Assembly: GCA_042568205.1 (NCBI GenBank)
Contig: JBHPJE010000005.1
Location: 3,267 to 67,266, forward strand
DNA: 64,000 nt
DNA from: Patescibacteria group bacterium
Lineage (GTDB): Bacteria; Patescibacteriota; Gracilibacteria; UBA1369; PNNO01
Direction: 5' to 3'
Shown: one piece after another, positions 4,791-45,815 of the stretch
How the letters are laid out: each line of letters opens with the position of its first letter
How positions within the stretch are numbered: the stretch's first letter is position 1
Made by a program: the position numbers and the translations under genes
Notes under the pieces: generated by a model
Databases searched by the model: none
What the model was told of the DNA's origin: nothing
Seen by the model: the letters and a program-made list of their open reading frames with translations, nothing else

Positions 4791-4824
4791 AAAAGAACCC
4801 CCGGCACGTCAGACGTGCCGGGGG
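4791..4824 (-). terminator. GC hairpin terminator (CCCCCGGC family)
   Basis: CCCCCGGCACGTC-a-GACGTGCCGGGGG with TTCTTTT tail on the minus strand. Confidence 0.85.
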
Positions 4825-4848
4825 CTTTGGGGTGAAGCGGAGGAGAGA

Positions 4849-5262
4849 TCAGACGAGGAGGCTCAGGAGCCCCTCGCCCTTGTTGCTGGCGTAGAGATAC
4901 GCCACGCGACAGAGGATGTAGAGGAAGGAGATGGCCGCGGCAGATCCGAAGATGAGCTCTTCGCTCTCCCGAACGCGAGGGCGGGTGCGGTAGTAGATCA
5001 TGAGGCTGAGACCCGCAACGAGACCGACGATGAACACAATGTCATAGTCGAGCCAGGTGAAGAAGTCGTAGACCCAGACCAGGTTGCCCGGGAAGAACCC
5101 GAGAACGAACCACGCGCCGAGAACGATCAGGGAGGACTTGAGAATCTCCCAACCCTCGAGGTCGCGCCACGCTCGCACCAGGGTGACCCTGAATACGAAG
5201 ATGGGAACGAGGAGAGTGAGGAAGATACCCCAGCCATTGTTGAACAGGTAGAAGTCTCTCAT
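4849..5262 (-). CDS. GC-rich membrane protein (about 4 TM), SD-led class
   Basis: Hydrophobic ORF with C-ending codons; SD GAAGGAGAAAGGA; own promoter and terminator. Confidence 0.75.
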   Translation of the reverse strand: MRDFYLFNNGWGIFLTLLVPIFVFRVTLVRAWRDLEGWEILKSSLIVLGAWFVLGFFPGNLVWVYDFFTWLDYDIVFIVGLVAGLSLMIYYRTRPRVRESEELIFGSAAAISFLYILCRVAYLYASNKGEGLLSLLV

Positions 5263-5341
5263 ATCTCTGTGTCCTTTCTCCTTCGTCCGCTTCGGACGAA
5301 AGAAACCGAGTTGTCAAAACCGATGTCTTTACTGGAGAATA

Positions 5342-5370
5342 AATTTAACATATTTTATATGTTTTGTCAA
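5342..5370 (-). promoter_or_regulatory. Sigma70-type promoter for 4849..5262
   Basis: TTGACA-17-TAAATT with extended TG. Confidence 0.7.
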
Positions 5371-5451
5371 GTATATTAAGAACTTGTTTTACCTTTACTT
5401 TAAGCCGTTTTTTCATGTAAAATTTGCAGGCGTACAAACCTCTCCTTCAAA

Positions 5452-6511: not shown

Positions 6512-6520
6512 TAAAGTCGA

Positions 6521-7513
6521 ATGAGAAATTTAAAACAACAAAAGGGATTTACCTTAGTAGAGCTGATCATAACAGTGACGATATTTAGTGTATTTATGCT
6601 TAGCCTTGTTACTTTGACAATCGATTTGTATCGTAATTCACGCAGAATCCAGCTGCAGGAGCAGCTTTATCAGGATATGCGTGCAATGATGCGCCAGGTT
6701 ACTATTTTGATTGAAGACAATGCGATTGATTATGAAGAGTATTATAGAGCTTCAGTTGAAGATGAAGAGTTGGCAAATTTATATGGAAGTGGAGCATATG
6801 TTTATGGTGATTATGGATCTCAATTTTATAATTTTGGATCTGATGGTGCGCCAGGAGTTTTATGTAATGATGGGACGCCAGCTAATTCCGATTGTGTAAT
6901 TGATAGAACAACTCTTGATAGAAATACAGGTCAAAATCCTGCTGATGCGGACCCTATTAATGCCAATGCTTTTTGTGGAGGTATTGATCAAACAGCATGT
7001 TTGACTTCAGACCAGGACCAGCTTTATTTAATAAATGATCGAGGTGATCGTAAGCAGATTTTGGCTTTGGAAGAAGTTGAAAGAGTGATAGATGGTGTAG
7101 TTGAGACTGAAACTGTGCTGTCCACCTTATGGCTTACCGGAAGGGATTCTGATGGTGATGACTTAACTGATATTTGGGATTATGCTGATGAATTTCTTAT
7201 ATTTGGAAATCCTTTGGATGAACTTAATACAGCAAAAGACGAAAGTTCAGTATATGATGGATTTATTCCAATCAGTCCATTAAGGACGAATATTACAAAC
7301 TTGAAGTTCCACATCGCACCTCTTGAGGATCCGTATAAAGCTTTTGGAGAAGCTGATCCTGCAACTGGAACCCTTGTGCAACCGCACGTAACAGTTGTGA
7401 TGACTGCCCAGCCTTCAAAGGCTGAGCTTACAAATTATCTCGGACCAATCCCAACAAAAACCTTACAAACTACTATATATTCTGACATAAAAAATGATGT
7501 TCGAAGCTATTAG
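6521..7513 (+). CDS. Type IV minor pilin (PilW-like)
   Basis: KG|FTLVELIITVTIF; C-terminal QPHVTVVM...LQTTI. Confidence 0.88.
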   Translation: MRNLKQQKGFTLVELIITVTIFSVFMLSLVTLTIDLYRNSRRIQLQEQLYQDMRAMMRQVTILIEDNAIDYEEYYRASVEDEELANLYGSGAYVYGDYGSQFYNFGSDGAPGVLCNDGTPANSDCVIDRTTLDRNTGQNPADADPINANAFCGGIDQTACLTSDQDQLYLINDRGDRKQILALEEVERVIDGVVETETVLSTLWLTGRDSDGDDLTDIWDYADEFLIFGNPLDELNTAKDESSVYDGFIPISPLRTNITNLKFHIAPLEDPYKAFGEADPATGTLVQPHVTVVMTAQPSKAELTNYLGPIPTKTLQTTIYSDIKNDVRSY

Positions 7514-7535
7514 GTCGCGATTGCGGCTTCCTAAA

Positions 7536-8807
7536 ATGCAAAAACGCAAAGGCATGACAATGATCATGATGCTTATCTTTGTGCCAATAATCCTGATTGT
7601 TGCTGCTTCATATGTTGAACCAATCATCCGATCATTCCGCGCTGCTGTTAACGATCAAAAAACACTATTAGCAAAATCAGTTGCTGACTCAATGTTCGAA
7701 ATAGCATTATGGGAAAGCCGTGGAGGCGGAACCGGAAGTGTGACAAGCGGATGCATCTGCGATTCACCACCCTGCGATGAACCAGATAGTACTGCTAGTA
7801 ATTGCAATAGCTTAGGCATCGATTTTGGCTTCGGGCAGGCAACAGGCGCTTGGTATGTTTTTGGGACACCGGAGGTGGACTCAGATCATTTAATAGTTGA
7901 AGGAAGCAATGAGTGGTATACAGTGCCATCGCTGGGAAGCGGTGATGCAGGTGGAGATTATTGCTCGACTGCGGAGCCAGTGATTGATGAGGATATGTTG
8001 AGGAACGCTTTGAATGGATTGGTTGGGGAAGCAAACGAAGATGTAATTGATGATGTTTTTGACTGGCCCTGCCACTGGAATAAAATCCGCGAAGGTGAAA
8101 GCGTTGTGATTCCGCTATTTATAGAAGATAGTGCAGGTGTGGTTTCGAATCCTGCGGATCTTGGAATGGATAGATTTGAATTAAGGTTTAGGGCTGCGTG
8201 TGATCCTGATGATCTAGATGCAATGCCTGATTATGCAAACTCAATATGTCATGAAGGGCAGAGATATGTGGTTGAGGGGGATGATGGGCAAACTGATACA
8301 GTGATAGTGTTGTGGGAGATAGTTGGGGATGAGGTTGATGCTAGTGATGTACCGACTGGGAATAAGATAATATTGGGGCCGTATACGGGAACTAATATAT
8401 TCCTTCAATCACAAATATTTAATGGGATTATAAATAACTATAGAGGACCCCCAAATTTAAATATTAAAGATAGTTCGCCTACAACGGACAATGATAAGAA
8501 ACACACAGAAACAATAATTCAGCATTTAAATTTTATTCAACCGCATTTATATTCACATCTTCAAATGAATCGCCCATACCTAAATCTTTTAGTAGTTCAC
8601 ACTCTTCGTGAAGATGGTAATCCAGACAGAGTAATTCCATATCTCGAATATCAGTTTAAAGCAACTTTAGACTCTTCAGACTCCCCTATTTCAAGCACTT
8701 CTAAGGTGGTTAGAGTGGATGTTATGGTCAATGGAGGTTACAGTGAAACATTAGAGAAAACTATCGCCTTACCTAAGCCAATTTCGGGGTTTGTAATATC
8801 TCAATAA
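7536..8807 (+). CDS. PilX-like minor pilin
   Basis: RKG|MTMIMMLIFV lacking Glu5, then A..VADS..E.A; last gene of the pilin cluster; start moved from 7494 to 7536. Confidence 0.7.
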   Translation: MQKRKGMTMIMMLIFVPIILIVAASYVEPIIRSFRAAVNDQKTLLAKSVADSMFEIALWESRGGGTGSVTSGCICDSPPCDEPDSTASNCNSLGIDFGFGQATGAWYVFGTPEVDSDHLIVEGSNEWYTVPSLGSGDAGGDYCSTAEPVIDEDMLRNALNGLVGEANEDVIDDVFDWPCHWNKIREGESVVIPLFIEDSAGVVSNPADLGMDRFELRFRAACDPDDLDAMPDYANSICHEGQRYVVEGDDGQTDTVIVLWEIVGDEVDASDVPTGNKIILGPYTGTNIFLQSQIFNGIINNYRGPPNLNIKDSSPTTDNDKKHTETIIQHLNFIQPHLYSHLQMNRPYLNLLVVHTLREDGNPDRVIPYLEYQFKATLDSSDSPISSTSKVVRVDVMVNGGYSETLEKTIALPKPISGFVISQ

Positions 8808-8812: not shown

Positions 8813-9033
8813 TTGACAATTTGGCTAATTATGATACAATAATCCTCTTTATCAATTCAGGCTTTTTTTGTCGACAAACTCTATTTTTGTAGATAACAAT
8901 GGCTTGAATTGTCAACTGTTCATTGACAATTCAATTAACGAAAACATCAGTCTTCCGTCAAAGGCTGATTAATGATATCTGAAAGAAAAACCCAAAGCTT
9001 CATCCCGCAGGGATGGGGAAAGGATTTTGAATC
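8813..9033 (+). promoter_or_regulatory. Promoter plus about 190-nt structured leader with boxA-like motif and SD
   Basis: TTGACA 8813 / TG-TACAAT 8835; TGTTCATTGACAAT 8917-8930; hairpins ATCAGTCTT/AAGGCTGAT and CATCCC/GGGATG; SD GAAAGGA 9018-9024. Confidence 0.7.
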
Positions 9034-11610
9034 ATGCGTAAAATCACGATTACCCTCATGGCCATCCTGATGATGGCAGTAACTTCCACTCCTGCTCTCG
9101 CCTCGATCGATGAGTGCGAGACTGAAGACTGCGTGCCGGCTATGTCCGACACAGCACTCGAATTCCTGGCCTCCGACGGAACCCTCAAGGGTTCTGTGAC
9201 CTATGGCAGTGGTGCAGGAACTGTCTCCTCTAAAGATGGTTACTCTGTCATCGCGCGTACCAGCAACACAGATGTTGCTGTCGTGAACGTTGCTGGCAAT
9301 GGCACGTATTGCACCCTCAACGTCGGCTCCCCCAAGTACTCCACCGTGCTCAATGGCCATGTCTATGTGGTTAACTCTGGTGGCGACGAGGTGATTGAAG
9401 CAGACATGAACTGCAACAATCGTATCACGATCGCGGTGGGCAACAGTCCGCTTGGCATCACCACGGACGGTGTGTACCTCTACGTGGTGAACCAGCTCGA
9501 TGGAAATCTCACTCGAATCGACCCCGTCACTCACGCAGCTACTCCCCTCGACATCGGCGTAACTCAGCCTTTCGTTGACCAGCTTGCTGCTGTATGCTAC
9601 AACCCTGTAGTAGACGCGCTCTACGTGTCAACGGCCTGGGGCTTCAAGGAAATTCTACTTCCCGGCCTCAGTACCAACGACTGGGTACAGGGAACCTCCA
9701 TGACCGACATCAAGTGCAACGACACGCACGTACTGATCGGAACCAGCATGGCCGGTAACGCTTACCTGGTTCCCGTGGCCAACTTCAGCAACGCCGCTCC
9801 CTTGGGAACCCTCGGCCCCCGATCGGTGGCCCTCGGCCCCAACGACGCCTTTGTTTCACGTGGAACAGTCGACGGCATCGAGAAGTTCAACATGTCCGGC
9901 ACCTCGCAGGGCATGATCGCCTCGACCCTCTACTGGTCCATCAGCTACCTCGCCCCCACGGCTTCCCCTCCGGTCTGCCCCAACGGCACCATGGAAGGCA
10001 CCGAGGAGTGCGACGGCAGCGACTTCGGCATCGAGACCTGCCTGACGCAGAATTTCGACGGCGGCAGCCTCAGCTGTACCGGCACCTGTACGATCGACAC
10101 CTCCGGGTGCACGTATACGTGCGGCAACAACGTGGCTGCTCCGACCGAGGAGTGCGATGGCACGGACCACAAGGGTCAGGACTGTACGACTCTGGGTCTG
10201 GGTTTCACGGGTGGCACGCTTGCGTGCTCCGGCTGTTCGTTCGACACGAGCGGCTGCACCGTGGCTCCTACCTGCAACGACGGCAATGTCGACGCTGGTG
10301 AAGACTGCGACGGAGCGAATCTCGACGGCGCTACTTGTCAGTCCGAGGGCTACTTCGGTGGCACTCTGGCCTGCACCGGCGCCTGCGCGTTCGACTTTTC
10401 CGGCTGCACGAACTGCGGCAACGGCACTGCCGACGCCAGTGAGGACTGCGATGGCGCAGACCTCAACAACAACGAGTGCACGGATCTCGGCTTTGACAGC
10501 GGCACGCTCGCGTGCAACGTATCCTGCACTTTTGACACTGGCAGCTGCGTTCTCAACAGCTGCGGCAACAGTTTGATCGATAACGGCGAGACGTGCGACG
10601 ATGGCAACAACATGAGCAGTGACGGCTGCTCGAACGTTTGCCAAACTGAGCCTGGGTATGAGTGCTCCGGCACCCCCAGCGTCTGCACGCTCATCTGCGG
10701 CAACAACACCGTCGACACTGGTGAAGAGTGTGACGGTGACAATCTCAACGGCGCCACATGCGCTGACTTCGGTGGCGAGGGCAACCTGACCTGTAAGTCG
10801 GACTGTACTCTCGACACCAGCAGCTGCCTGGCGTGCAACGACCCGCAGATCGTGTACGACATCACGATCAACGACATCGATCAGGAACAGCTCAATGGGC
10901 ACAACGCCACGCTGTTCGCCAACAACCTCGGTGATCTCACTGAAGCTGACGGCGACCGCATCACCTGTGGCGACTTCGAAGTCGCAGGCGAGACGGTTCC
11001 GAGCGTGGTCGTGAGCCTGAATCCCGGTGAGTACAAGCTTGTGCGCATCTCGGGCAACGGCTCCACTGCCAACTGCATGGTCTTCACGAAGGCCTCCGAC
11101 GCCAAGTTGTATGTCAACATCTCGGATCCCAAAAAGACCCGACTGGAAGGCAGCGACGACGGATACGGCCTCATCTGCGTTCACGCGGGCGAGGACATGC
11201 AGTTCGAGATCGACGGGCTCCTCCTCGGAACCCTGGGTACGGCCCTGTCGTACCAGTACCTCACGTACAATCCGGAAGCCAAGGTGAATGGCAACTGGGC
11301 CGAAATCTACGTGAGCACTGATGGCGTCAAGCTCATCGAGCTCGAAGATCCCACCAATCGCTCCGGCGATCTCTTCGTGGCCTCCTTCACCAACGGCCCG
11401 AAGTATGTCAACCTCGACGCGAAAGGCGACCTGTCGGAAATCGGCCGCCTGCCCGTCGACCCGCCCGAAGGATGTTGCTCAACCGGCAAAACCGGCGCAA
11501 CTCCCCCCTACATTCCCCTCGGTCTTGTATTCCTCTTCCTTCTGTACGGCCTGTGGCGTTCGCGCCGCCGGTCCCTGCAGATGCAGAGGATCAAGAAGCG
11601 TGATCGCTAG
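9034..11610 (+). CDS. GC-rich surface protein: signal peptide, YVTN-like beta-propeller, myxobacterial-type Cys-rich repeats, MYXO-CTERM-like anchor
   Basis: VGNSPLGITTDG..LYVVN propeller blades; repeated CGNG..E.CDG.DL...TC...GF.GG.L.C...C..DTS.C; CDDGN..S.DGCS; C-terminal GCCST-TM-RSRRR. Confidence 0.88.
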   Translation: MRKITITLMAILMMAVTSTPALASIDECETEDCVPAMSDTALEFLASDGTLKGSVTYGSGAGTVSSKDGYSVIARTSNTDVAVVNVAGNGTYCTLNVGSPKYSTVLNGHVYVVNSGGDEVIEADMNCNNRITIAVGNSPLGITTDGVYLYVVNQLDGNLTRIDPVTHAATPLDIGVTQPFVDQLAAVCYNPVVDALYVSTAWGFKEILLPGLSTNDWVQGTSMTDIKCNDTHVLIGTSMAGNAYLVPVANFSNAAPLGTLGPRSVALGPNDAFVSRGTVDGIEKFNMSGTSQGMIASTLYWSISYLAPTASPPVCPNGTMEGTEECDGSDFGIETCLTQNFDGGSLSCTGTCTIDTSGCTYTCGNNVAAPTEECDGTDHKGQDCTTLGLGFTGGTLACSGCSFDTSGCTVAPTCNDGNVDAGEDCDGANLDGATCQSEGYFGGTLACTGACAFDFSGCTNCGNGTADASEDCDGADLNNNECTDLGFDSGTLACNVSCTFDTGSCVLNSCGNSLIDNGETCDDGNNMSSDGCSNVCQTEPGYECSGTPSVCTLICGNNTVDTGEECDGDNLNGATCADFGGEGNLTCKSDCTLDTSSCLACNDPQIVYDITINDIDQEQLNGHNATLFANNLGDLTEADGDRITCGDFEVAGETVPSVVVSLNPGEYKLVRISGNGSTANCMVFTKASDAKLYVNISDPKKTRLEGSDDGYGLICVHAGEDMQFEIDGLLLGTLGTALSYQYLTYNPEAKVNGNWAEIYVSTDGVKLIELEDPTNRSGDLFVASFTNGPKYVNLDAKGDLSEIGRLPVDPPEGCCSTGKTGATPPYIPLGLVFLFLLYGLWRSRRRSLQMQRIKKRDR

Positions 11611-11651
11611 TCCCCTCCAAGGGTGACTGACGATCCAATCCCACCTTTTAA

Positions 11652-11686
11652 CCCCCGGCCTGCAACATGCAAGCCGGGGGTTTTTT
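11652..11686 (+). terminator. GC hairpin terminator (CCCCCGGC family)
   Basis: CCCCCGGCCTGCAACATGCAAGCCGGGGG-TTTTTT. Confidence 0.9.
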
Positions 11687-11802
11687 CGTATATAAAATTA
11701 CTTAGATTGAATTTTATTCAATTGTTGTTTAAAATAAAACAACACTAAATGCTTTACAAAAACCAACTTAATTATTATTTTAACTTCCTAACCAGAAAAA
11801 TT

Positions 11803-12084
11803 ATGAATATTGCAGACTTCTTAAAAGCTATGAAAAATAGCCAAATCACGGGTGAATTTGACCTAAGTGATCATAAAGATGAATTGATGGACCGCGATTT
11901 TGAGGGAACTACTTTCAAAGATTGCGTAATCACTGGTGGAGACTTTGCTTCATCAGGATTCAATAACTGTACTTTTGAAAACGTGACATTCGATGGGAGT
12001 GCTCTGGTTGGAGTTACTTTCCAAGGATGCACAATGAACAATCTCGCATTTACGCAAACACAAACTGACTTTTCAATAAGTTAG
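11803..12084 (+). CDS. Small pentapeptide-repeat protein
   Basis: RDFEG TTFKD CVITG GDFAS SGFNN CTFEN VTFDG five-residue periodicity; ATG at 11803. Confidence 0.8.
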   Translation: MNIADFLKAMKNSQITGEFDLSDHKDELMDRDFEGTTFKDCVITGGDFASSGFNNCTFENVTFDGSALVGVTFQGCTMNNLAFTQTQTDFSIS

Positions 12085-12102
12085 TTGAAAGGAGAAAACC
12101 GA

Positions 12103-12372
12103 ATGAGTACTTGGACTGGATGGCGCAGTAAGCATGGCTTTCAAGAAAATGTCAAAGATGAGGGGATGTGGATGCATCTCTTGATCGCCCCACCGGACGA
12201 ACCCAATCCACGAGCCAACCATGTTCACGTCAAGATCCTGAAGGTGGTCATGCGTGCCAAGCGCTGGAACTACACCCTCTGCAGTGTGAAAGTGGAAGGG
12301 AACCGCATTCACAGCCGTCGTGACTTCATCCAGCGCATCAACGCCTGCACTGACCTCAATCTCTCCTACTAA
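12103..12372 (+). CDS. GC-rich small basic hypothetical protein, SD-led class
   Basis: SD GAAAGGAG 12087-12094 places the start at ATG 12103; C-ending codons; terminator follows. Confidence 0.7.
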   Translation: MSTWTGWRSKHGFQENVKDEGMWMHLLIAPPDEPNPRANHVHVKILKVVMRAKRWNYTLCSVKVEGNRIHSRRDFIQRINACTDLNLSY

Positions 12373-12414
12373 TTAGCACATACCCTCCTCGGAGCAGTTC
12401 TCGCTTAAAACCAG

Positions 12415-12449
12415 CCCCCGGCTTGCAACATGCAGGTCGGGGGTTTTTT
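12415..12449 (+). terminator. GC hairpin terminator (CCCCCGGC family)
   Basis: CCCCCGGCTTGCAACATGCAGGTCGGGGG-TTTTTT, near-identical to 11652-11686. Confidence 0.9.
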
Positions 12450-12460
12450 CATATCCCGAC

Positions 12461-14477: not shown

Positions 14478-14478
14478 C

Positions 14479-14608
14479 TTGACTTTTTATCTAAAATATG
14501 TCACAATTCACCTCTTGATAGGCTCTTTGGCAAATCAGGGTTATATTACCCTGGAACGGAAACACACACCCTTATTAGCGCATTAGGACGCGCCAAAACG
14601 AGGATACG
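14479..14608 (+). promoter_or_regulatory. Promoter plus leader with boxA-like motif
   Basis: TTGACT-17-CACAAT (extended TG); GGCTCTTTGGCAAAT 14521-14535; CAGGGT/ACCCTG hairpin; GAGGA 14600-14604. Confidence 0.65.
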
Positions 14609-15634
14609 ATGAAAACCATGAAGATGATCGCAGTGCTGTTCTTGCTTGTTTCTGTCGGCTGCGGATCGCGCAGCGTCGGTCACAACAACAACGTGAACGA
14701 CAATAACACCAACGAGAACACGAACGTCAACGACAACACTAACGTCAACACCAACACCGGCCCCGAGTGCCTCACCTTCCGCATCATGGTCAATGACACA
14801 GTGGAGGAAGAGCTCGAGTATGAGCAAGACTTCACTCGTCCCTGTCTGCTCGACTACCTGGACGTCGAAATCAGCCCCGAATGGCACCGTCTGTGTCACA
14901 ACATGATGATCCTGGCTGACATCAGAGCCCCGCAAGAAGGCTACCCCGACGGCACGCTCAAGCCGGACGAATGCATGCTTAAGGCTGAGGTCTGGCACAT
15001 GCAACTCCGTACCCTCGGCCTCATCATGTTCCCACAAGGTGCACCTGGTGACGACGTGGACCAGAGCGACTGGTACGCCGGCGCCATCGGCAACTTCGCC
15101 CGCAAAGGCTTCATCACGCCCGATGATGACAACATGGTCTACCCCGCCGACATCATGACCCTGGAGGAATGGAACGTCTGGAAATCGCATATGATCGCCT
15201 GGCTCAACATGGGCCTCATCCGCATCGACTTTCTGGAAGTCCTGCTGACCTCCCTGCTGAGCGGACCCACCTACGACGTGCTCGACTGCGTCAGTGAGGA
15301 ATTCGACGACATCGAAACGAACTCATTCGAGTGCGTGCTCACCAACACCGCTATTGACTACGGTCTAATTGACGGCTACCAGATGAGCTTCCGACCCCTC
15401 GACTCACTCAACTGGGCTGAGATGGTGAAGATGTCGATGCAAGCGAAGAACATCCCCGACTCCGAAAACTTCACCTGCTGGAATCACTGCGACGAAGGCG
15501 AATGGTACTGCGGATCGATTAACGCAGCCTGCGAACTAGGCCTGCTTCCTCCCGGCCTCACCAACGCTGGCGACATCCCCACCCGCCTCGAAGCGTTCAG
15601 GTTCCTCCAGCTGATGGAGATGCTGAACCTCTAG
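14609..15634 (+). CDS. GC-rich lipoprotein with Asn-rich linker and degenerate SLH-like repeats
   Basis: Lipobox VSVG|C; NNNVNDNNTNENTN linker; WY..AI....KGFI, GLIDGY..SFRP...LN.AE..KM and WY...INAA.ELGL....TRLEA motifs. Confidence 0.78.
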   Translation: MKTMKMIAVLFLLVSVGCGSRSVGHNNNVNDNNTNENTNVNDNTNVNTNTGPECLTFRIMVNDTVEEELEYEQDFTRPCLLDYLDVEISPEWHRLCHNMMILADIRAPQEGYPDGTLKPDECMLKAEVWHMQLRTLGLIMFPQGAPGDDVDQSDWYAGAIGNFARKGFITPDDDNMVYPADIMTLEEWNVWKSHMIAWLNMGLIRIDFLEVLLTSLLSGPTYDVLDCVSEEFDDIETNSFECVLTNTAIDYGLIDGYQMSFRPLDSLNWAEMVKMSMQAKNIPDSENFTCWNHCDEGEWYCGSINAACELGLLPPGLTNAGDIPTRLEAFRFLQLMEMLNL

Positions 15635-15690
15635 CGCGAAGCGCCCCCCTGTGTTTCCCTCCTATAACACCTGTCTGCCTCCCTACCAAA

Positions 15691-15726
15691 AAAGACCCGC
15701 CATCAGAAATGATCGGCGGGCTCTTC
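15691..15726. terminator. Hairpin terminator between convergent genes
   Basis: AGACCCGCCATCA-gaaa-TGATCGGCGGGCTCT. Confidence 0.7.
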
Positions 15727-15739
15727 AATATATATTAAT

Positions 15740-16297
15740 CTAAGCTCTTTCCACGTAATCCCCAGTATCTGTATTCACTCGCACTTTTTCACCTTCAGCT
15801 ATAAATAAGGGTACTTGAATCACTTTTCCAGAATCCAAAGTTGCAGCCTTTTTTCCACCACTAACTGTATCCCCTTTAACTCCAGGTGTTGTTTCAACAA
15901 CTTCAAACACCATTTTTGGAGGTAATTCGATTGAAATCATAGTTCCTTCAAAAAACACACCATCAACTGTTGATCCATCTAACAAATACTCAACCGAGCC
16001 CTCAATAACGTCTAAAGCAACCTCGAATTGCTCGTATGTTGATTCATCCATAAAAAAGGCTGCAGAGTCGTCTTTGTATAAATATTGAACCTTGCCGCGA
16101 TTAACCTGCGCTATTTCAAAATTTTCACCAGATAAGAAAGTTTTATCTAAAGTTGCACCTGTTTTAACGTTCTTTAATTTCGACTTCATAACCGGCTTTT
16201 GGGCTTCTTTTCGCTTAAATTCGCTCCAGGTAATAATATAAGGATCACCATTTAATTTAACAATTCGGCCTTTTGTAAGATCAGTAAGATTTCCCAT
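15740..16297 (-). CDS. efp: Elongation factor P
   Basis: G.IVKLNGDPY, KLKNVKTG, QYLYKD, FMD..TYEQ, PGVKGDT, VPLFI..GE..RVNT..G.YVERA; true start MGNLTDL at 16297. Confidence 0.95.
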   Translation of the reverse strand: MGNLTDLTKGRIVKLNGDPYIITWSEFKRKEAQKPVMKSKLKNVKTGATLDKTFLSGENFEIAQVNRGKVQYLYKDDSAAFFMDESTYEQFEVALDVIEGSVEYLLDGSTVDGVFFEGTMISIELPPKMVFEVVETTPGVKGDTVSGGKKAATLDSGKVIQVPLFIAEGEKVRVNTDTGDYVERA

Positions 16298-20926: not shown

Positions 20927-20975
20927 GGTGAATTCATGGATCGTTGGAACCAAATAGGCCCATTGATCTCGTTTT

Positions 20976-25799: not shown

Positions 25800-26444
25800 A
25801 TGCGACTAATCGAAGCAGTAGCTGTAAGCGGGCTCTTCACCCTGTTCTCCGCCAATGCGTTTGGCAACCCGCGGCCCAAAAACGGAGACGATCCCGTCTC
25901 ATGCGTTCAGGTGGTGGGCGACGGCGAGTATCTCCTTAGCATGCCCGAGGGGGCTGCACTTCCTTGCCGCTTTGTGGCAAACGAAGCAGGGACATTCGTA
26001 CGGTTGGATTGGGGCGAGATGATCGTCACACGTGAGAATAGCATCCTAAAGCGCGGTGCCGCCCGCGTGTATACAGCCGGGATACCTTTCTCAATCATGG
26101 GGGACCAAGTTCACCTTATAGAAACTGATAACACTGTAGACGTGGTAGTCGACAGCGACCTCACGTATATCCTCTCGAAAGAGGGGTGCGCAGAAGTAGT
26201 CAGTTGCTATGAGGCAGGTACAGAGCAAGGCGAATCCTACTTCCTCGAAGAGGGAGATCTTCTCGTACTACGTCGGAGTGGCGCGGTTTACGCGTGGGAA
26301 GATGTAGAAGGGAAAAGCCGCGTTCCACGCGGAGGATGTTCGACTGCTCATGATACGAACGTTGGGACTGTTCCAGAAGGTTTCACATGGTTTCTCTTTT
26401 TGGCTGTTTGGCTCTGGTTTAGGCGACGAAGCTCTTCGGAGTAA
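25800..26444 (+). CDS. GC-rich exported protein with MYXO-CTERM-like anchor (possibly FecR-like beta domain)
   Basis: Signal peptide ending ANA; beta-rich body; C-terminal GGCST...FTWFLFLAVWLWF-RRR. Confidence 0.78.
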   Translation: MRLIEAVAVSGLFTLFSANAFGNPRPKNGDDPVSCVQVVGDGEYLLSMPEGAALPCRFVANEAGTFVRLDWGEMIVTRENSILKRGAARVYTAGIPFSIMGDQVHLIETDNTVDVVVDSDLTYILSKEGCAEVVSCYEAGTEQGESYFLEEGDLLVLRRSGAVYAWEDVEGKSRVPRGGCSTAHDTNVGTVPEGFTWFLFLAVWLWFRRRSSSE

Positions 26445-26528
26445 GTCAGCTGAAAGCCGGGCACCTACTAGTTAGTAATATTTGCTCTTCGGATTGGGGT
26501 TTTAAGTGAAATCCGGAGAGCATTATTT

Positions 26529-30570: not shown

Positions 30571-30623
30571 TTGTTTGACAAATTAGCGATTGGTTTATAA
30601 AGATCCCGGTGAAGGTCTTTTTC

Positions 30624-30744
30624 TTGACTTCAAATATCTTAATATATATATTCTTCGACTGGTGCTTCTATAGTAATCAAGGCAACAACCACGTTGGCGC
30701 TTGATTACACAAGCGCTGACAATTGACACATGGGAGATAGAACA
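30624..30744 (+). promoter_or_regulatory. Promoter plus structured leader
   Basis: TTGACT-17-TATATT; GTAATCAAG/CTTGATTAC and GCGCTTG/CAAGCGC stems; GCGCTGACAATT; SD GGGAGA 30732-30737. Confidence 0.62.
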
Positions 30745-31083
30745 GTGAGTGACATTGCATACAAACACCTTGTTGGAGGCGTTCATGGGCAATCAGCCGT
30801 GGACGCCATAATAAGCAGAGCTAATTTGGCGATCATCCCAGGGCGAGAAGCTCTGGAAGCCAGTAAGCTTATGGTTCGGATCGGCGCCAATGAGTGGCGA
30901 CTGAGCCTGGTGAGCGCCCCTAATGCCAAGCAGGCCATTCAAGCCGCAAGACGTAAATGCGGCAAAAATGTGGTCACTCCGGAATTTCTGCTCAAACAAG
31001 ACGAAGGTCTGTTCTGGAGTATGAAGTTCCACTACACGGACGAGTTCCGGCGATTCCTTGCCGGCGACATCGGCGCGCTTTAA
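30745..31083 (+). CDS. GC-rich small hypothetical protein, SD-led class
   Basis: GTG at 30745 is 7 nt after GGGAGA (ORF track starts at ATG 30730); C-rich 3' UTR and hairpin follow. Confidence 0.65.
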   Translation: MSDIAYKHLVGGVHGQSAVDAIISRANLAIIPGREALEASKLMVRIGANEWRLSLVSAPNAKQAIQAARRKCGKNVVTPEFLLKQDEGLFWSMKFHYTDEFRRFLAGDIGAL

Positions 31084-31232
31084 TCCTCCCTCCCGACCCC
31101 TCCCCCCACACTTAGCTTGAAGTCGCACAAGTTAAGGGGGGAGGGATCGTTTTCATATCCGAACTCCAACCCAGGTTGCAAAGCATGTCAATTTGAGGTA
31201 TAATAATATGATCAAATTTTAACATTTTCAAA

Positions 31233-31664
31233 ATGGCACACACAGGTGGTACTCCAGATCCACGAGGCAATGTAAGACAGCCTGAATACACTGGGGATAT
31301 CGAAAATAAAAAACTAAATACAGGTAAAGCACTTGACGAAGTAGGAAAAACTGTAGACGTAGAAGGACAAACTCCAAGAGAATCTAAAAATAAAATTGCA
31401 GAATTTTTAGTAGAAGCTAAAGACAAAAAATTAAAATCAGAAGCAGCACTTAAAAAGAAAGGGTTCGAACCTTTAGAGCTTGCTGCTTTTTCTAACTTCG
31501 ACGATTTAGTTACTGAAGATGGCAATCTTCAGGGTGGAGCTGCTAGCAGCTTTACTGCACAATATGTTAAAAACTTTGGAATTGACGATCCAAATTATGA
31601 AGTTGAAGTTGGAGAATATGGTGATGGCGATTACACGGTTTACTTAAAAAAGAAAAATTCATAG
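31233..31664 (+). CDS. Hypothetical protein
   Basis: TTGCAA...TATAAT promoter upstream; backbone codon usage; terminator downstream. Confidence 0.75.
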   Translation: MAHTGGTPDPRGNVRQPEYTGDIENKKLNTGKALDEVGKTVDVEGQTPRESKNKIAEFLVEAKDKKLKSEAALKKKGFEPLELAAFSNFDDLVTEDGNLQGGAASSFTAQYVKNFGIDDPNYEVEVGEYGDGDYTVYLKKKNS

Positions 31665-42420: not shown

Positions 42421-42867
42421 TTATTTTCGTTTAAGGGCGCGTGCAATGTCAAGATTTTGATCGCGTTTTTTTAGATCCGCTCGTTTATCATAGAGTTTTT
42501 TTCCTCTTACCAATCCGATTTTTAGTTTGATGAGGCCTGCTTTTGTGTACATTTCTAATGGTACGCAAGTTGTTCCGGTTTCATTTAGTTGTTTTAAAAT
42601 TTTGAGGATTTCTTTTTCGTGAAGAAGAAGTTTTCGTTTTCTTGTTGGATTTGGATTGCTTTTATTGGCGAATTTATATGGAGAAATATGCGCATCGTTA
42701 AGCCAAACTTCATGTTTTGAATCAATATCAACATAACTCCCTTTAAGATTGCAATTTGATGCTTTGCAGGATTTTACCTCAGGTCCAAGCAGCGCAATTC
42801 CAGCCTCGAAAGTGTCGAGAATTTCATAATCGTGGAAAGCCTTTTTATTTTTTGAGAGAGAGGGCAT
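42421..42867 (-). CDS. smpB: SsrA-binding protein
   Basis: NKKAFHDY, EAGIAL.G.EVKS, RKLLLH, GKKLYDKR. Confidence 0.97.
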   Translation of the reverse strand: MPSLSKNKKAFHDYEILDTFEAGIALLGPEVKSCKASNCNLKGSYVDIDSKHEVWLNDAHISPYKFANKSNPNPTRKRKLLLHEKEILKILKQLNETGTTCVPLEMYTKAGLIKLKIGLVRGKKLYDKRADLKKRDQNLDIARALKRK

Positions 42868-42933
42868 ATGGAAATTTATAAGTTGCGTTTTAGTTTAGTC
42901 ATTTTTTGGCTTTCAAATCAAGAGGATTATGCA

Positions 42934-43047
42934 TATAATAGCTTCCCAAGCTTCGCTTGACTAAAACAATGAGCGAAGTATTGCTCATTGAAAAAATACG
43001 GCCAAAAACACAAATGAAAACTGATCGAAAGAAGGAGGACTGTTATT
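42934..43047 (+). promoter_or_regulatory. Promoter (-10) plus leader with boxA-like motif and SD
   Basis: TATAAT 42934; TGCTCATTGAAAA 42982-42994; SD AAGGAGG 43032-43038. Confidence 0.68.
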
Positions 43048-45735
43048 ATGAGATGTTTTGTTATGGCATTTCTGGTTGGCATCATGATGCTGGCTGGAGC
43101 AACCACGGCGAGAGCGGACCTTCCGCCTGCGCCTGAACAGTGTGCGTCGCAGGGATGCTTCGCAATCCAGGGTCAGACCCATCTCTACCTCGACCGGAAA
43201 GGAGTCGAGAAAGGACCGATCGCCCTGCCCGTCACTGGTGAAAACACCCTCAGGTATTCAAACGGATACCTCGTGGGGACTTGGAATGTCTCCAATGTCA
43301 TGTGGCTATATCACGTCGAAACTGGTACACAGTGCACTCGTGACGTTGGGATAAGCTGCAAAGAGGGAGTGGTGTTTGGAGGGTATGCATTCGCTGCCTG
43401 CCCAAGCAATTCCTCCACCGTGAGGATGGCGCTCGACTGCACCTCGCACGACACGTTCCCTGGTGGAGCCTTCCAGAATCCTGAGACCTTGAGCTTATCT
43501 AGCACCGAAGTGATCTTCGGATCCAACGGGAATAACCGCGTCGGACACTTCGATCCGGTTAACCCGAGCCTGGCCAACGCCTACGGCACCGGCCTGACAA
43601 ACCTCATGTACGTCAGGTACCATGCCGGAACTTCGAAGGTGTACTTCAACGGTAACGATGGTCTCCCCGGGATCTTCTTCAAGGACTATCCCCTGACCGG
43701 AGTGTTCACTTCGCAGAACCTGCTCTACCTACCAGTCAACACACGGTTCCTGTCCATCAACGATACACACCTCTTCGCCTCCTCGTATATCTCGGAAGCC
43801 TACCTGGTGGACATCGTGAACCAGACCTACATCACGCTCGCCATGAGCGAGTCGCGTGCGAACGCACTGTCTTCTGACACCGCGTATGTCGTGGATGTGG
43901 GCATCGATATCGTGACCCGTGCCTACGACCTGCAAGGTAACGAGAAAAGTTACTCACCCTTGCCGGTGGCTGGCTACTCCATCGCTTACATTGAGCCCCA
44001 TGTGGCACCGGTGTGCAACAACGGGCTCATCGAGCCTGGCGAGATCTGCGATGGTAGTGACTTTGACGGCGCAACTTGCGCCGACCATGGTTTCGATGGC
44101 GGCGAGCTCGGGTGCAACCTGAGCTGCGACGCGATCAGCACCATCAACTGCTACGGCTGTGGCGACGGCGTGTTGAATGCCAGCGAAGCCTGCGATGGTA
44201 GCGACCTCGGACCCGAAACCTGCGTGGACTACGGTTACGCAAGCGGCGACCTGAGCTGCAACTCAAGCTGCGAGCACGACACCTCCGACTGCTACACCTG
44301 TGGCGACGGATTCATCGAAGGCGCCGAACAGTGCGAGTCCAACGATCTCAACGGCGGCTCATGCACTTCCGAGGGATTCGTCGCTGGCACAATTGCCTGC
44401 GGCACCGACTGCATGTACGACACGTCCAACTGCACTTCCTGCGGTGATGACGTGATCAATGGCAGTGACATCTGCGACGGCAACGCCATCAACGACGTCT
44501 GCCAGACTCTGGGCATGGGCTTCACCGACGGCACACTCGCGTGCAACAGCACTTGCGACGACTACAACACTTCCGGCTGCACCACGTGCGGTGACGGAAA
44601 TGTAGATCCCGGCGAAGAGTGCGACGGCAACGACCTCGACCAGGAGAACTGCCCGGGCCTCGGATTCACCGGCGGCAACCTCAACTGCTACGCCAACTGC
44701 ACGTACGACACGTCTCAGTGCAACGGCGCACCGATCGAGATCTGTGGCAACAACGTCATCGATCCCGGCGAAGAGTGCGACGACGGCGACCGCCTGAACG
44801 GCGACGGGTGCGACGAAAACTGCATGAACGAACCCGATCCCGTCCTCTGTGGCAACAACATCATCGAAGGCATCGAGGAGTGTGACGGTACCGAACTGGG
44901 TGGCGTCAGCTGCGAAAGCCTGGGCTACAACACTGGCGTGGTGTACTGCGAGAACAACTGCAGACTCAACGTCAACTGCAGCTTCAACAACTTCCAGCCC
45001 GCCAGTCTCAACGTCGAACCTGGTGCGCAACCGCCCCCCGGAGCCTTCACTCCGGAGCAGACGGAAACCTTCGAAGAGATCACCGATGGTCTCACCGAGT
45101 CCTGCATCCCGTCCATGGATGGCAGCGACCTGATCATGACCACGCCCGAAGACGGCTACTGCCCGATCGAGCTGAACTTCGGAGGCATTGAGCCTTCCCT
45201 GAAGTCCAAGCAGGGCAAGGTCTTCATCATGATCTACAAACCTACCAACTCGCTCAACAACGAGAACGCTGTCGTTCGCATCAAGCCGAGCGGCGAGTTC
45301 AACATCGAGAGCGGTGGACATATGAGAGCTCAGCTCTGGGTGACGCCGACCATCACGTTCGACAACAACGCCCTGACTGAGACCACCGAAGCAAGCATGA
45401 GCCTTCGCATGGAACTCCTGTCGGTCCACCCGGATCCGCCGGAGGACACCGATCCGAATGGCCGCTTCCTTCTCGTCGAGATTGCCACGGGCCTGGGCAC
45501 ATACTGCTCCAGTTCCGGCACCTGCGCTATCGTCCCGAGTGGCGGTGTGCATGTGCTCGATCTCGACAACCTCGACGACTCCCTGGGGGACATCGGCCGT
45601 ACCCCCAAGAAGTCCAGTGGCTGCTCCATCGCGGGAAGCAGCTCCAACAACTCAGAAATTCCCGCGTTCATCATGGTGATCATGCTGATCCTGGCCATTC
45701 GCATTCGACGGCAGAAGAAAGCCGCGAATCGATAG
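43048..45735 (+). CDS. GC-rich surface protein, paralog of 9034..11610 (propeller-like head, Cys-rich repeats, MYXO-CTERM-like anchor)
   Basis: Signal peptide ending ARA; CG(D/N)G...E.CDG.DL repeats; CDDGD..NGDGC; C-terminal SSGCS-TM-RIRRQKK. Confidence 0.88.
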   Translation: MRCFVMAFLVGIMMLAGATTARADLPPAPEQCASQGCFAIQGQTHLYLDRKGVEKGPIALPVTGENTLRYSNGYLVGTWNVSNVMWLYHVETGTQCTRDVGISCKEGVVFGGYAFAACPSNSSTVRMALDCTSHDTFPGGAFQNPETLSLSSTEVIFGSNGNNRVGHFDPVNPSLANAYGTGLTNLMYVRYHAGTSKVYFNGNDGLPGIFFKDYPLTGVFTSQNLLYLPVNTRFLSINDTHLFASSYISEAYLVDIVNQTYITLAMSESRANALSSDTAYVVDVGIDIVTRAYDLQGNEKSYSPLPVAGYSIAYIEPHVAPVCNNGLIEPGEICDGSDFDGATCADHGFDGGELGCNLSCDAISTINCYGCGDGVLNASEACDGSDLGPETCVDYGYASGDLSCNSSCEHDTSDCYTCGDGFIEGAEQCESNDLNGGSCTSEGFVAGTIACGTDCMYDTSNCTSCGDDVINGSDICDGNAINDVCQTLGMGFTDGTLACNSTCDDYNTSGCTTCGDGNVDPGEECDGNDLDQENCPGLGFTGGNLNCYANCTYDTSQCNGAPIEICGNNVIDPGEECDDGDRLNGDGCDENCMNEPDPVLCGNNIIEGIEECDGTELGGVSCESLGYNTGVVYCENNCRLNVNCSFNNFQPASLNVEPGAQPPPGAFTPEQTETFEEITDGLTESCIPSMDGSDLIMTTPEDGYCPIELNFGGIEPSLKSKQGKVFIMIYKPTNSLNNENAVVRIKPSGEFNIESGGHMRAQLWVTPTITFDNNALTETTEASMSLRMELLSVHPDPPEDTDPNGRFLLVEIATGLGTYCSSSGTCAIVPSGGVHVLDLDNLDDSLGDIGRTPKKSSGCSIAGSSSNNSEIPAFIMVIMLILAIRIRRQKKAANR

Positions 45736-45766
45736 GCTCAGCACCAGCTGAAAACCTATAGATCAC

Positions 45767-45815
45767 GCCTGGTCTCAATGCAGTATTTTATTGCAGCGAG
45801 ACCAGGCTTTTTTTT
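45767..45815 (+). terminator. Intrinsic terminator
   Basis: GCCTGGTCTC...GAGACCAGGC-T8. Confidence 0.88.

Follow-up and report, generated by a model that had tools for sequence, protein, structure and literature searches.

Genomic islets and the "morons" of phages are horizontally acquired, autonomous units of promoter, open reading frame (ORF), and terminator with a deviant GC content. Genes that are still unameliorated at genus-level divergence are not predicted by the amelioration model. For the Bacteroidia, the portions of the reports drawn on here describe an anti-Shine-Dalgarno (anti-SD) sequence that is normally sequestered, bS21-lacking ribosomes that read SD-led mRNA, and an autoregulated rpsU gene for bS21 (PMC7797042, PMC9976891, PMC13000453). 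In the same limited excerpt for F. johnsoniae, a response to bS21 loss is confined to an extended SD, and rpsU is stated to be the sole gene with an obvious SD (PMC9976891). The MYXO-CTERM surface proteins of the Myxococcota, as far as the excerpts used here go, include the receptor TraA (PMC3325183, 10.1101/2023.06.07.544157).

The window, the whole stretch of 64,000 nucleotides analyzed, belongs to a 42-contig draft genome (G000) of about 1.2 Mb with 35% GC and a completeness of 88%. uL30 is absent from this genome, its 16S rRNA is 80 to 81% identical to those of Peribacteria and Peregrinibacteria metagenome-assembled genomes (MAGs), and judged by these sequences it is apparently a member of the CPR close to the Peregrinibacteria. 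It was compared mainly with G002, a closed genome of the same genus (single contig, 1,374,545 bp), and with G007 from another genus of the same family. ORFs and starts were called simply, as the longest ORF. The leaders of the backbone genes in the window are A/T-rich and without SD, and the start regions of 614 backbone genes contain only 4 to 9% G at positions −17 to −1, with A peaking at −11, −10, and −3. Seven SD-led genes in the window have a GC3 of 0.54 to 0.83 and a C3 of 0.31 to 0.59, and the GC islands of the window coincide with them, while the GC3 of the 40 other listed ORFs is 0.14 to 0.40. The contrast between GC-rich SD-led genes and an AT-rich SD-less backbone, drawn in the earlier note, was thus borne out by GC3 and leaders. 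The units, and a small RNA to which their SDs had been related, are as follows.

4796..5370, − strand: GC-rich cassette, multi-TM product; ORF 4849-5262 (137 aa), GC3 0.83, SD GGAGAAAGGA, leader of ~80 nt, promoter-like TTGACA-17-TAAATT at 5342-5370, hairpin terminator at 4796-4826.
8813..11691, + strand: old GC-rich gene "a"; ORF 9034-11610 (858 aa), GC3 0.75, SD GGGGAAAGGA, promoter-like TTGACA-16-TACAAT at 8813-8840, hairpin at ~11649-11691.
11695..12452, + strand: two-gene insert; AT-rich ORF 11749-12084 and GC-rich ORF 12103-12372 (89 aa, GC3 0.67, or 0.65 over 12085/12103-12372, SD GAAAGGAG), hairpin at 12409-12452.
14479..15740, + strand: GC-rich cassette; ORF 14609-15634 (341 aa), GC3 0.79, weak SD GAGG, promoter-like site at 14479-14507, hairpin at ~15692-15725.
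20973-21154, − strand: tRNA-like small RNA of 182 nt; tmRNA-like acceptor and T-arm ends, internal ACCTCCTTTCT.
25800..26522, + strand: old GC-rich gene; ORF 25800-26444 (214 aa), GC3 0.54, SD GTGGAGGT, hairpin at ~26483-26522.
30624..31149, + strand: GC-rich cassette; ORF 30730 (or 30745)-31083 (117 aa), GC3 0.56, weak SD GGGAGA at 30745, promoter-like TTGACT-17-TATATT, hairpin at ~31094-31149.
42912..45807, + strand: old GC-rich gene "b"; ORF 43048-45735 (895 aa), GC3 0.76, SD GAAGGAGG, promoter-like TTCAAA-16-TATAAT, hairpin at ~45767-45807.

A 3' hairpin is present at all seven genes, as had been claimed, and the annotated ORFs, which are a subset of all ORFs, include neither a transposase nor an integrase. 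The claim that six of the genes possess their own sigma70 promoter was only partly correct: a consensus-like site, defined as a match at 9 or more of 12 positions within 260 nt, precedes five of the seven. None was found within 260 nt of 25800, and the 12103 gene sits behind the AT-rich ORF of its insert, with promoter-like sites at 11707-11781. This insert is flanked on both sides by direct repeats of about 40 nt of the terminator hairpin. The 9034 protein begins with a signal peptide and a propeller-like N-domain, continues with Cys-rich DUF4215/TIGR02232 repeats and a C-terminal domain, and ends in a MYXO-CTERM tail. Its paralog 43048 has the same architecture with a GCS-TM-RRR tail, 25800 encodes a signal peptide and a GCS-TM-RRR tail, and the 14609 product is a lipoprotein with an SLH domain.

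The split extends beyond the window. With an SD core defined as GGAG, GAGG, or AGGA at −20 to −3 of the start, 8 of the 10 ORFs of the genome with a GC3 of at least 0.65 carry a core (1/10 and 2/10 in their own control windows), compared to 25 of 829 ORFs with a GC3 below 0.3 (Fisher P = 1e-10). In this low-GC3 class, the core is depleted below the background of its own control windows (78/829 and 74/829; P = 7e-8). The closed genome G002 displays the same split, with 29/967 at a GC3 below 0.3 and 6/13 at 0.65 or above, so that the two correlated modes, a check set beforehand, were found in both genomes. The GC-rich SD-led pattern recurs in six further relatives. In a control of 15 loci from Peri- and Peregrinibacteria and one Patescibacteria MAG, 14 of them with 50 to 63% GC, an SD was present in 12 of 131 ORFs, which indicates that GC-richness alone does not create SDs. 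Two grammars exist in this genome and recur in its closed relative, and the seven genes of the window are part of a genome-wide minority of roughly 20 to 30 genes. The predicted products of this class are mostly exported, comprising lipoproteins, small membrane proteins, and the two large paralogs; N-terminal signal peptides or TM segments occur in 12/19 minority-class versus 206/925 other ORFs, and a lipobox in 5/19 versus 20/925.

For the genes 9034, 25800, and 43048, both G002 and G007 contain GC-rich orthologs in synteny. Those of 25800 are 43% (G002, GC3 0.58) and 36% (G007, GC3 0.57) identical, and those of 43048 in G002 (53% identity), G007, G012, and G010 are all GC-rich and SD-led. 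The SD is kept in 5/5 "b" orthologs while the remaining leader has diverged. Most orthologs of the trio retain the SD, the signal peptide, and the Cys-TM-Arg tail, with an ambiguous SD in the G002 "a" and G007 25800 orthologs. The same codon is used at identical residues with a frequency of 0.29 to 0.54, compared to 0.32 to 0.46 expected for independence (backbone, 0.40 to 0.55 versus 0.37 to 0.49). By this crude codon-identity measure and an ad hoc two-state model, the synonymous sites of the trio appear to be near saturation, yet high GC3 and SD were retained. In the syntenic G005 ortholog of 9034, GC3 (0.25) and SD were lost together, the leader being AT-rich and SD-less and the sorting tail unchanged; this concerns one lineage only. 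The assertion that the seven genes form a maintained class rather than random transfers therefore holds for these three, with their synteny, near-random synonymous sites, and kept SD and tail, but not for the other four, whose syntenic sites in G002 and G007 hold no counterpart.

Ordinary recent horizontal transfer, with all seven genes new and unameliorated and their SDs relics of a donor without a present role, agrees with the turnover of the class, because these four lack syntenic counterparts and 28 of the 40 ORFs of the genome with a GC3 of at least 0.45 have no match in G002. Most of the GC-rich units are species-specific and located in intergenic slots that turn over. The 4849-5262 gene is lineage-specific, with no ortholog in the G002 and G007 region or the G002 ORF set, and so is the two-gene insert, which is absent from both genomes. 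The 14609 cassette occupies an entire intergenic slot that is empty in G002, and its orphan product had one homolog (29% identity) in a search of 5.8 billion proteins. The lineage-specific 30730-31083 protein matches no family, and the equivalent G002 slot contains an unrelated GC-rich SD-led 69-aa ORF. A GC-rich MBL-fold gene is nearest to proteins of Gemmatimonadetes, Nitrospirae, and Magnetococcales (54 to 59% identity; Patescibacteria protein, 40%). For the trio, synteny in two genera and near-random synonymous sites refute recent transfer, the "b" gene tree groups by genus, and the SD was conserved. For none of the seven genes did a donor turn up, and the search for near-identical homologs yielded at best 59% (MBL-fold gene) and 29% (14609). 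As an explanation for the whole set, recent transfer is unlikely. An older acquisition of the trio is a separate matter: every homologous locus with readable DNA has AT-rich flanks, and the full-length families are narrow (25800, a mere 9 representative clusters among 1.84 billion proteins; 43048, 16 proteins with at least 96% coverage), so that with no donor it is the format and the modules of the trio that point to a foreign origin. These Myxococcota-type modules are the TIGR02232 and TIGR03901 matches, the cutoff of the latter being reached by only one of the three tails, and repeat regions that match Myxococcota proteins.

GC-biased gene conversion might instead keep surface genes at recombination hot spots GC-rich, with the SD merely inherited. 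The trio proteins are fast-evolving (36 to 54% amino acid identity versus 66 to 87% for their neighbors), all three codon positions show an elevated GC (0.57, 0.43, and 0.76 versus 0.49, 0.34, and 0.21), as expected from a regional bias, and GC3 of the old genes differs by lineage (0.50 to 0.76) and was lost in G005. In bacteria, however, gene conversion has a reported effect of a few percent, which a GC3 rise from 0.2 to 0.75 far exceeds. The trio leaders have only 36 to 41% GC, indicating that the enrichment ends near the ORF, and neither the position-specific SD nor the joint loss in G005 is given a cause, making this process a rather improbable one. Expression-linked optimization, in which optimal C-ending codons and a strong SD serve surface proteins of the highest abundance, would match the C-rich third positions (C3 0.51) and the enrichment of exported and SLH proteins. 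It has little probability, since the genes for EF-Tu and ribosomal proteins are AT-rich and SD-less with a GC3 of 0.13 to 0.28, many members are species-specific orphans, and the preference extends to G-ending codons for Lys, Glu, and Gln, which means a general GC3 shift and not NNC alone. The earlier note had proposed mRNAs or genes formatted for the ribosomes of a GC-rich host, acting there as "mRNA effectors." SD, GC-rich codons, and Myxococcota-type tail form a host-like format, and a CPBP protease, the candidate tail processor, was not found in the 88% complete genome. This protease is nevertheless encoded by a native AT-rich gene in 5/5 relatives searched, the promoters are of the native AT-rich type, the tRNA set of the bacterium can decode all codons, its 16S rRNA has its own anti-SD, and the G005 ortholog combines native format with the same tail. 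Moreover, we know of no bacterial mRNA-export route, and the proposal could not be upheld; its probability is close to nil. Equally far-fetched is an assembly or binning chimera, suggested by the draft state and by two GC-rich stretches (C6, C27) located at the ends of contigs or on one of 4 kb, because the pattern recurs in the single-contig G002 and the other relatives, and each unit, equipped with a promoter and a terminator, lies between intact genes.

The SDs had also been paired to the tRNA-like RNA at 20973-21154. This element is preceded by a TTGACA-17-TATAAT promoter, but only its two ends match the tmRNA model (17.6 bits versus a gathering score of 47), the canonical tmRNA is encoded elsewhere (C12:76587-77000), and the syntenic gap in G002 is just 72 nt. 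In the bacterium's own 16S rRNA, ACCUCCUUUCU makes up the 3' tail. With this canonical anti-SD, neither a host ribosome nor an "anti-SD RNA" is required. A separate translation mode, also proposed, does not need the small RNA, but the SD-independent default and the SD of rpsU make a minority SD-dependent mode in this lineage plausible. With the start giving the best SD picked, the AT-rich rpsU gene has a 10- to 11-nt SD in 9/9 genomes of the family (dG −16.5 to −19.9), and the dG was −11.6 or lower in 16 of the 22 genomes of the order in which rpsU could be detected. The SDs of the cassettes are ordinary 4- to 8-mers, in contrast to this extended SD, a point against the reading preferred below.

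The explanation preferred here, with a probability of about 0.55, is that the GC-rich units are self-contained cassettes, probably of acquired origin, which encode exported proteins and are translated via SD-anti-SD pairing, a few of them being actively kept in this format. By default, initiation would occur without SD on G-depleted, A/T-rich leaders despite the canonical anti-SD. Each unit would comprise an AT-rich sigma70-like promoter, a leader, an SD, a GC-rich ORF, and a GC-rich hairpin, and the class may have been acquired from GC-richer, SD-using bacteria. The cell's own ribosomes, probably a subpopulation poor in bS21, may read the mRNAs of this class via SD-anti-SD pairing, and selection may hold the foreign format of the trio. 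That a tiny AT-rich, SD-less bacterium has a small number of GC-rich, SD-led surface genes, some of them ancient, hints at a second reading mode for acquired genes.

Like islets and morons, the units are deviant single genes with their own promoter and hairpin between conserved genes and vary among close relatives. Unlike these, they are outside any prophage, no mobility genes were seen among the annotated ORFs, and three members are unameliorated across genus-level divergence. Compared with TraA, as portrayed in the excerpts cited, the large proteins share the signal peptide, an N-terminal head, Cys-rich tandem repeats, and the C-terminal Cys-TM-Arg-rich tail. The head is propeller-like instead of PA14, the repeats are TIGR02232/DUF4215 and not TIGR04201, an additional domain of about 250 aa precedes the tail, and the genome is CPR-like. 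With the Bacteroidia, to the extent covered by the cited portions, the lineage has in common SDs that are nearly absent and depleted before starts, A-rich leaders, a retained canonical anti-SD, and, on rpsU, an extended SD (about −17 to −20 kcal/mol). The phylum differs, being CPR-like, and the CPR is without mention in the portions of the literature searched on SD-blind ribosomes. The anti-SD of the Bacteroidia is normally sequestered, and the likeness of the present lineage is one of sequence signature. While rpsU stands by itself in F. johnsoniae according to the excerpt cited, about 20 to 30 further genes, all GC-rich, possess ordinary SDs here.

The GC profile of the window contained sharp islands of 50 to 62% GC. 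Among the 47 window ORFs tabulated, seven had a GC content at third codon positions (GC3) of 0.54 to 0.83 and a C content there (C3) of 0.31 to 0.59, and the other 40 had a GC3 of 0.14 to 0.40. The codon table of the GC-rich genes was inverted compared with that of the genome. The seven GC-rich ORFs, six of them on the plus strand, were as follows.

4849-5262, minus strand, small multi-TM protein
9034-11610, plus strand, gene a
12085/12103-12372, plus strand, no family matched
14609-15634, plus strand, lipoprotein with SLH domains
25800-26444, plus strand
30730-31083, plus strand, no family matched
43048-45735, plus strand, gene b, paralog of gene a

The 30730-31083 region was retained as a protein ORF, its GC3 of 0.56 hardly exceeding its GC content of 0.53; it may be non-coding, and the 30540-31260 slot gave no Rfam match above chance. 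A gene was regarded as Shine-Dalgarno (SD)-led when its start codon was preceded, at a distance of 4 to 12 nt, by a purine-rich stretch that can pair with the 3′ end of the cell's 16S rRNA. This 16S rRNA ended in ...GGATCACCTCCTTTCTAGG (...GGAUCACCUCCUUUCUAGG in another excerpt of the tail). All seven genes were SD-led for the cell's own ribosome, two of them weakly: the match to the 16S tail comprised 6 to 8 nt upstream of the 5262(−), 9034, 12103, 25800, and 43048 starts but only 4 to 6 nt at 14609 and 30745. A stable hairpin was located 3′ of each of the seven genes, and a sigma70-consensus-like site not more than 260 nt upstream of five.

In the genome of the window (G000), ORF calling with a minimum length of 80 aa yielded 992 ORFs, 48 of them with a GC3 of at least 0.40. 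An SD core (GGAG, GAGG, or AGGA at −20 to −3) preceded 8 of the 10 ORFs with a GC3 of at least 0.65 (control windows of the same genes, 1/10 and 2/10), 7 of the 20 with a GC3 of 0.5 to 0.65, and 25 of the 829 with a GC3 below 0.3 (control windows, 78/829 and 74/829). SDs were therefore over-represented among the high-GC3 ORFs (P = 1e-10 for the high versus the low class) and under-represented among the low-GC3 ORFs (P = 7e-8). The closed genome G002 of the same genus (one contig, 1,374,545 bp) had the SD core in 29 of 967 ORFs with a GC3 below 0.3 versus 6 of 13 with a GC3 of at least 0.65 (P = 2e-6), and six other relatives had 43048 homologs of 54 to 66% GC within flanks of 28 to 45% GC. The GC3/SD split is no artefact. 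The ORF caller took the longest ORF, which in GC-rich DNA was often in the wrong frame; when the scan was anchored on starts, more SD-led ORFs of high GC content emerged, and many of these had a lipoprotein signal peptide. A Pfam family was lacking in 7 of 10 further GC-rich ORFs.

A general rule that GC-rich mRNA needs an SD was rejected on the basis of 15 loci, 14 with 50 to 63% GC and one with 43%, from MAGs of Peribacteria, Peregrinibacteria, and Patescibacteria, in which only 12 of 131 ORFs carried an SD core. GC-richness alone does not explain the SDs. Codon optimization for high expression was rejected as well, since the genes for ribosomal proteins and EF-Tu obeyed the grammar of the backbone, being SD-less and AT-rich with a GC3 of 0.13 to 0.28. 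Backbone start regions were depleted of G (4 to 9% over −17 to −1), with A peaking at −11, −10, and −3 and T at −15 to −13 and −1 (n = 614). A weak T-T-A-A-C-like pattern at −15 to −9, visible genome-wide and in the window leaders, could be a non-SD start signal.

The G000 assembly comprised 1.156 Mb in 42 contigs at 88% completeness; most of its large contigs had 32 to 37% GC, and the window contig C38 (window at C38:3267-67266) had 39.5%. uL30 was found in none of five genomes of the order, two of them reported as 100% complete, with the control positive in 13 of 14 genomes. The 16S rRNA was 83% identical to that of a same-order genome, 81% to a Peribacteria MAG, and 80% to a Peregrinibacteria MAG, and TopA was 51 to 55% identical to those of these MAGs. 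The missing uL30 and these identities suggest a CPR bacterium near the Peregrinibacteria. The tRNA set called by ARAGORN in G000 included the odd Asn(att) and Pro(agg), in place of which G002 has Asn(gtt) and Pro(tgg).

The earlier note had attributed the anti-SD sequence to a tRNA-like RNA. That sequence is the ribosome's own anti-SD, because the organism's 16S rRNA ends in it. The RNA concerned was the following element.

20973-21154, minus strand, tmRNA-like RNA element of 182 nt, its ends matching the tmRNA acceptor and T-arm (17.6 bits)

It had a G3:U70 pair, its promoter was a perfect TTGACA-17-TATAAT, and the anti-SD tail of the 16S rRNA recurred inside it. A canonical tmRNA gene was present elsewhere (C12:76587-77000), and the syntenic gap in G002 measured only 72 nt. 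The element is a tmRNA-like remnant or variant. As an anti-SD partner it was rejected, since the 16S rRNA has the same sequence and G002 lacks the element at the corresponding position.

The whole window was syntenic with G002 and with G007, a genome of the same family. Positional orthologs in both were found for 9034, 25800, and 43048, the “old trio.” Amino acid identities to the G002 and G007 orthologs, respectively, were 36% and 36% for 9034, 43% and 36% for 25800, and 53% and 38% for 43048; the GC3 of these orthologs was 0.72 and 0.71, 0.58 and 0.57, and 0.72 and 0.62 in the same order. The housekeeping flanks were mostly 66 to 87% identical with a GC3 of 0.26 to 0.43. In the family tree, the two paralog clades were older than the genera, and the grouping within clade b followed the genera. 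At identical residues of the old trio, the same codon was used at a frequency of 0.29 to 0.54, compared with 0.32 to 0.46 expected under independent drawing, and backbone genes had an equally small excess. The residual codon identity was about 13% between G000 and G002 and about 5% between G000 and G007. A two-state model of our own, built on this residual identity, predicts that a neutral gene starting from a GC3 of 0.9 would now be at about 0.36 to 0.46 or lower, and the old trio was observed at 0.57 to 0.76. The signal peptide and C-terminal tail were conserved, as was the SD in most orthologs, with at least 6 nt in all five clade-b leaders. The synteny, the near-saturation, a GC3 above the model value, and the conserved SD indicate that the old trio are long-standing residents kept GC-rich and SD-led. 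A “maintained class,” as proposed in the earlier note for all seven genes, agrees with these three but not with the other four.

Our preferred guess is that the high GC3 of the old trio is held by selection tied to SD-dependent expression. The main rival is biased gene conversion, which may keep the GC3 of these genes high in its place. G005 belongs to another genus; its positional ortholog of 9034 lay downstream of a gene orthologous to window 7494-8807 (42% identity). It had a GC3 of 0.25, an AT-rich SD-less leader, and a C-terminus that still read CGCS...TM...RKRK. GC3 and SD had flipped together in this one such switch (n = 1). Since both features were flipped, it is evidently the small cell itself that uses the 9034-type protein. 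At least one further family member (L219) was among the matches listed in a metagenome scan, and in a scan of genome contigs the G007 record was, among the matches listed, the only full-length relative. The full-length relatives of 43048 and 25800 formed narrow families, and only the repeats matched Myxococcota. Directly after 43048, at 45897-64000, came a row of three AT-rich giant ORFs of 3498, 1392, and more than 1140 aa, which were syntenic in G002 and G007.

Concerning horizontal acquisition, an atypical base and codon composition (GC3 of 0.54 to 0.83 versus 0.14 to 0.40) characterized the seven genes; four of them had no counterpart at the syntenic sites of G002 and G007, and three were syntenic in both. 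Genome-wide, 28 of the 40 G000 ORFs with a GC3 of at least 0.45 had no match in G002. The 14609 protein was an orphan, for which a search of 5.8 billion proteins gave a single homolog (29% identity). A GC-rich MBL-fold gene outside the window was nearest to proteins named from Gemmatimonadetes, Nitrospirae, and Magnetococcales (54 to 59%), with a Patescibacteria protein at 40%. The homolog searches found no donor for any of the seven genes, and neither an integrase, a transposase, a tRNA target, nor a target duplication was present among the annotated window ORFs. The class was probably derived from GC-richer, SD-using bacteria.

Each of the young units, the four genes without such counterparts, was self-contained and consisted of an AT-rich TTGACA-type promoter, a 60- to 190-nt leader, the SD, the ORF, and a GC-rich hairpin. 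In the slot between pheS and the gene at 31233 (window 30554-31232 versus L013:15706-16304), G002 had an unrelated GC-rich ORF of 69 aa with the SD GAGAGGAGG; apart from the promoter that serves the downstream gene, the slot was not conserved. Hairpin stems of the GCCCCCGG type were confined to three loci in G000, each behind a GC-rich ORF. A terminator hairpin was present twice.

11649-11691 and 12409-12452, direct repeats of the terminator hairpin, about 40 nt, 90% identical

These repeats, the only ones seen as a possible mobility signature, bracket 11695-12452, a two-gene insert of 760 bp that was lacking in G002 and G007; they may be a trace of cassette entry. The gene at 12534-14477, flanked by two GC-rich cassettes and conserved in G002 and G007, encoded a fusion of a CHASE2 sensor with an adenylate/guanylate cyclase domain. 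Elsewhere in G000, GC-rich repeat-protein DNA was found on the small contig C27 (3,980 bp, 58.5% GC) and at a contig end (C6:1-2182), mutually 65 to 72% identical; both had homology to a GC-rich cluster in G002 that spans some 8 kb (599668-607990); on C6 it adjoined an AT-rich homolog with a GC3 of 0.14.

The 9034 and 43048 proteins were paralogs with 29% identity over 669 aa. Both had a signal peptide and an N-terminal domain of about 300 aa matching a designed eight-blade propeller (E = 3e-6), continued with some seven DUF4215/TIGR02232 repeats rich in Cys and with another domain of about 250 aa, and ended in a Cys-TM-Arg-rich tail. This tripartite tail, an invariant Cys motif followed by a TM helix and an Arg-rich end, was present in all three old-trio proteins and in their homologs of G002, G007, G012, G010, G008, G001, and G005. 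Against TIGR03901 (MYXO-CTERM, cut-off of 20 bits), the tails of 9034 and 25800 scored 20.5 and 11.2 bits, respectively, and 43048 gave no match. In place of such a tail, the native AT-rich surface proteins of G000 had LPxTG-like C-terminal signals. Exported proteins were enriched in the class: an N-terminal signal peptide or TM segment was found in 12 of 19 GC-rich SD-led ORFs versus 206 of 925 backbone ORFs of G000, and a lipobox, by crude patterns, in 5 of 19 versus 20 of 925. The Myxococcota-type tag and the repeats may hint at the donor or the host group.

A CPBP protease or cognate myxosortase was not found in G000, which is 88% complete. The protein of C1:122462-123694 was rejected as a myxosortase, having a weak PF02517 match only; a different membrane family fits, below its cut-off. 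Native AT-rich PF02517 (CPBP family) proteins were present in five of five relatives, all of them under every Mrt cut-off (MrtS, 49 to 55 versus 130; Mrt_core, 24 to 27 versus 100). Together with the cell's own anti-SD and tRNAs, the native-type promoters, and the native format of the G005 ortholog, these proteases speak against the proposal that the GC-rich genes are mRNA effectors formatted for a host. In the part of PMC3325183 consulted, the Myxococcus receptor TraA has a PA14 head, a Cys-rich stalk, and MYXO-CTERM, a layout of head, stalk, and tail that parallels the 9034 and 43048 proteins. These proteins, however, matched neither PA14 nor TIGR04201, and their head is beta-propeller-like; because the domain families differ, the parallel is one of analogy and not of membership.

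The gene for bS21, rpsU, had a leader of its own kind.

C23:57474-57680 of G000, minus strand, rpsU (bS21), AT-rich (GC3 of 0.19), with a 10- to 11-nt SD of the GAAAGGAGGTG type

The leader sequence was GGAAGGAGGU in G000 and GAAAGGAGGUG in G002. With the best-SD start taken among the in-frame starts, which yielded mutually alignable N-termini, the extended SD was found in nine of nine family genomes (ΔG of −16.5 to −19.9 kcal/mol) and in 16 of the 22 genomes of the order with a detectable rpsU; loci with this leader include L185, L187, L191, and L199. The ORF matched PDB bS21 chains (E = 0.001), with the F. johnsoniae chains not among the matches. Since the gene scored below the Pfam cut-off in four of five genomes, divergence of the bS21 sequence may be behind reports of its absence, such as the statement in PMC9297842, as far as its text was available, that Peregrinibacteria-related clades “frequently lacked bS21.”

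The mRNAs of the GC-rich class would be translated by the cell's own ribosomes via SD-anti-SD pairing and, should these ribosomes be blind to SDs like those of Bacteroidia, by a bS21-poor minority of them. By analogy, the ribosome of this CPR order may be Bacteroidia-like, SD-blind unless bS21 is missing, and the cassettes may form a regulon of bS21-poor ribosomes, a second translation channel for acquired surface or host-interaction genes, some of which would be held by selection over family-level time without amelioration. To this reading as a whole we assign a probability of about one in five. If confirmed, the presence of the rpsU signature across this order would suggest that the specialized-ribosome circuit is older or convergent; genes with a GC3 of about 0.7 in a genome of about 0.2 after synonymous saturation would contradict simple amelioration, and the old trio would be a clean natural system for what fixes gene-specific composition. 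The exported proteins of the class, among them receptor-like ones with a Myxococcota-type anchor, would be candidates for the machinery with which an uncultured episymbiont lineage contacts its host, and they might point to that host.

Compositional islets and SD-independent lineages are already known. New, as far as the main texts of the literature searched are concerned, are an rpsU signature of the Bacteroidia type within a CPR order, a minority of genes in which SD and GC-rich composition strictly go together, and the survival of this format through synonymous saturation; neither the rpsU signature, the GC3 persistence, nor the receptor-like class was described in CPR in these main texts. 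The consulted parts of PMC13000453, PMC9976891, PMC7797042, and PMC13000457 made no mention of CPR or Patescibacteria.

According to the parts of PMC13000453, PMC9976891, and PMC7797042 consulted, the anti-SD of Bacteroidia is sequestered by bS21, bS18, and bS6, and their rpsU carries an extended SD and is translated better by ribosomes without bS21. The sequestering pocket has signature residues such as Tyr54 of bS21. The extended-SD signature of rpsU, described in the same parts for Bacteroidota, appears here across an order of CPR-like bacteria. Three results weigh against the overall reading of acquired cassettes translated through SD pairing: no donor was found, the full-length families of the old genes are narrow, and the cassette SDs do not attain the length of the extended one required in F. 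johnsoniae, as described in the consulted part of PMC9976891. The likeness to the SD-independent system of Bacteroidia consists in a genome-wide scarcity and depletion of SDs with the canonical anti-SD kept, and the likeness to the autoregulation of bS21 in the extended SD that precedes rpsU here too. An SD-independent default together with an extended SD on rpsU is the combination described for Bacteroidia.
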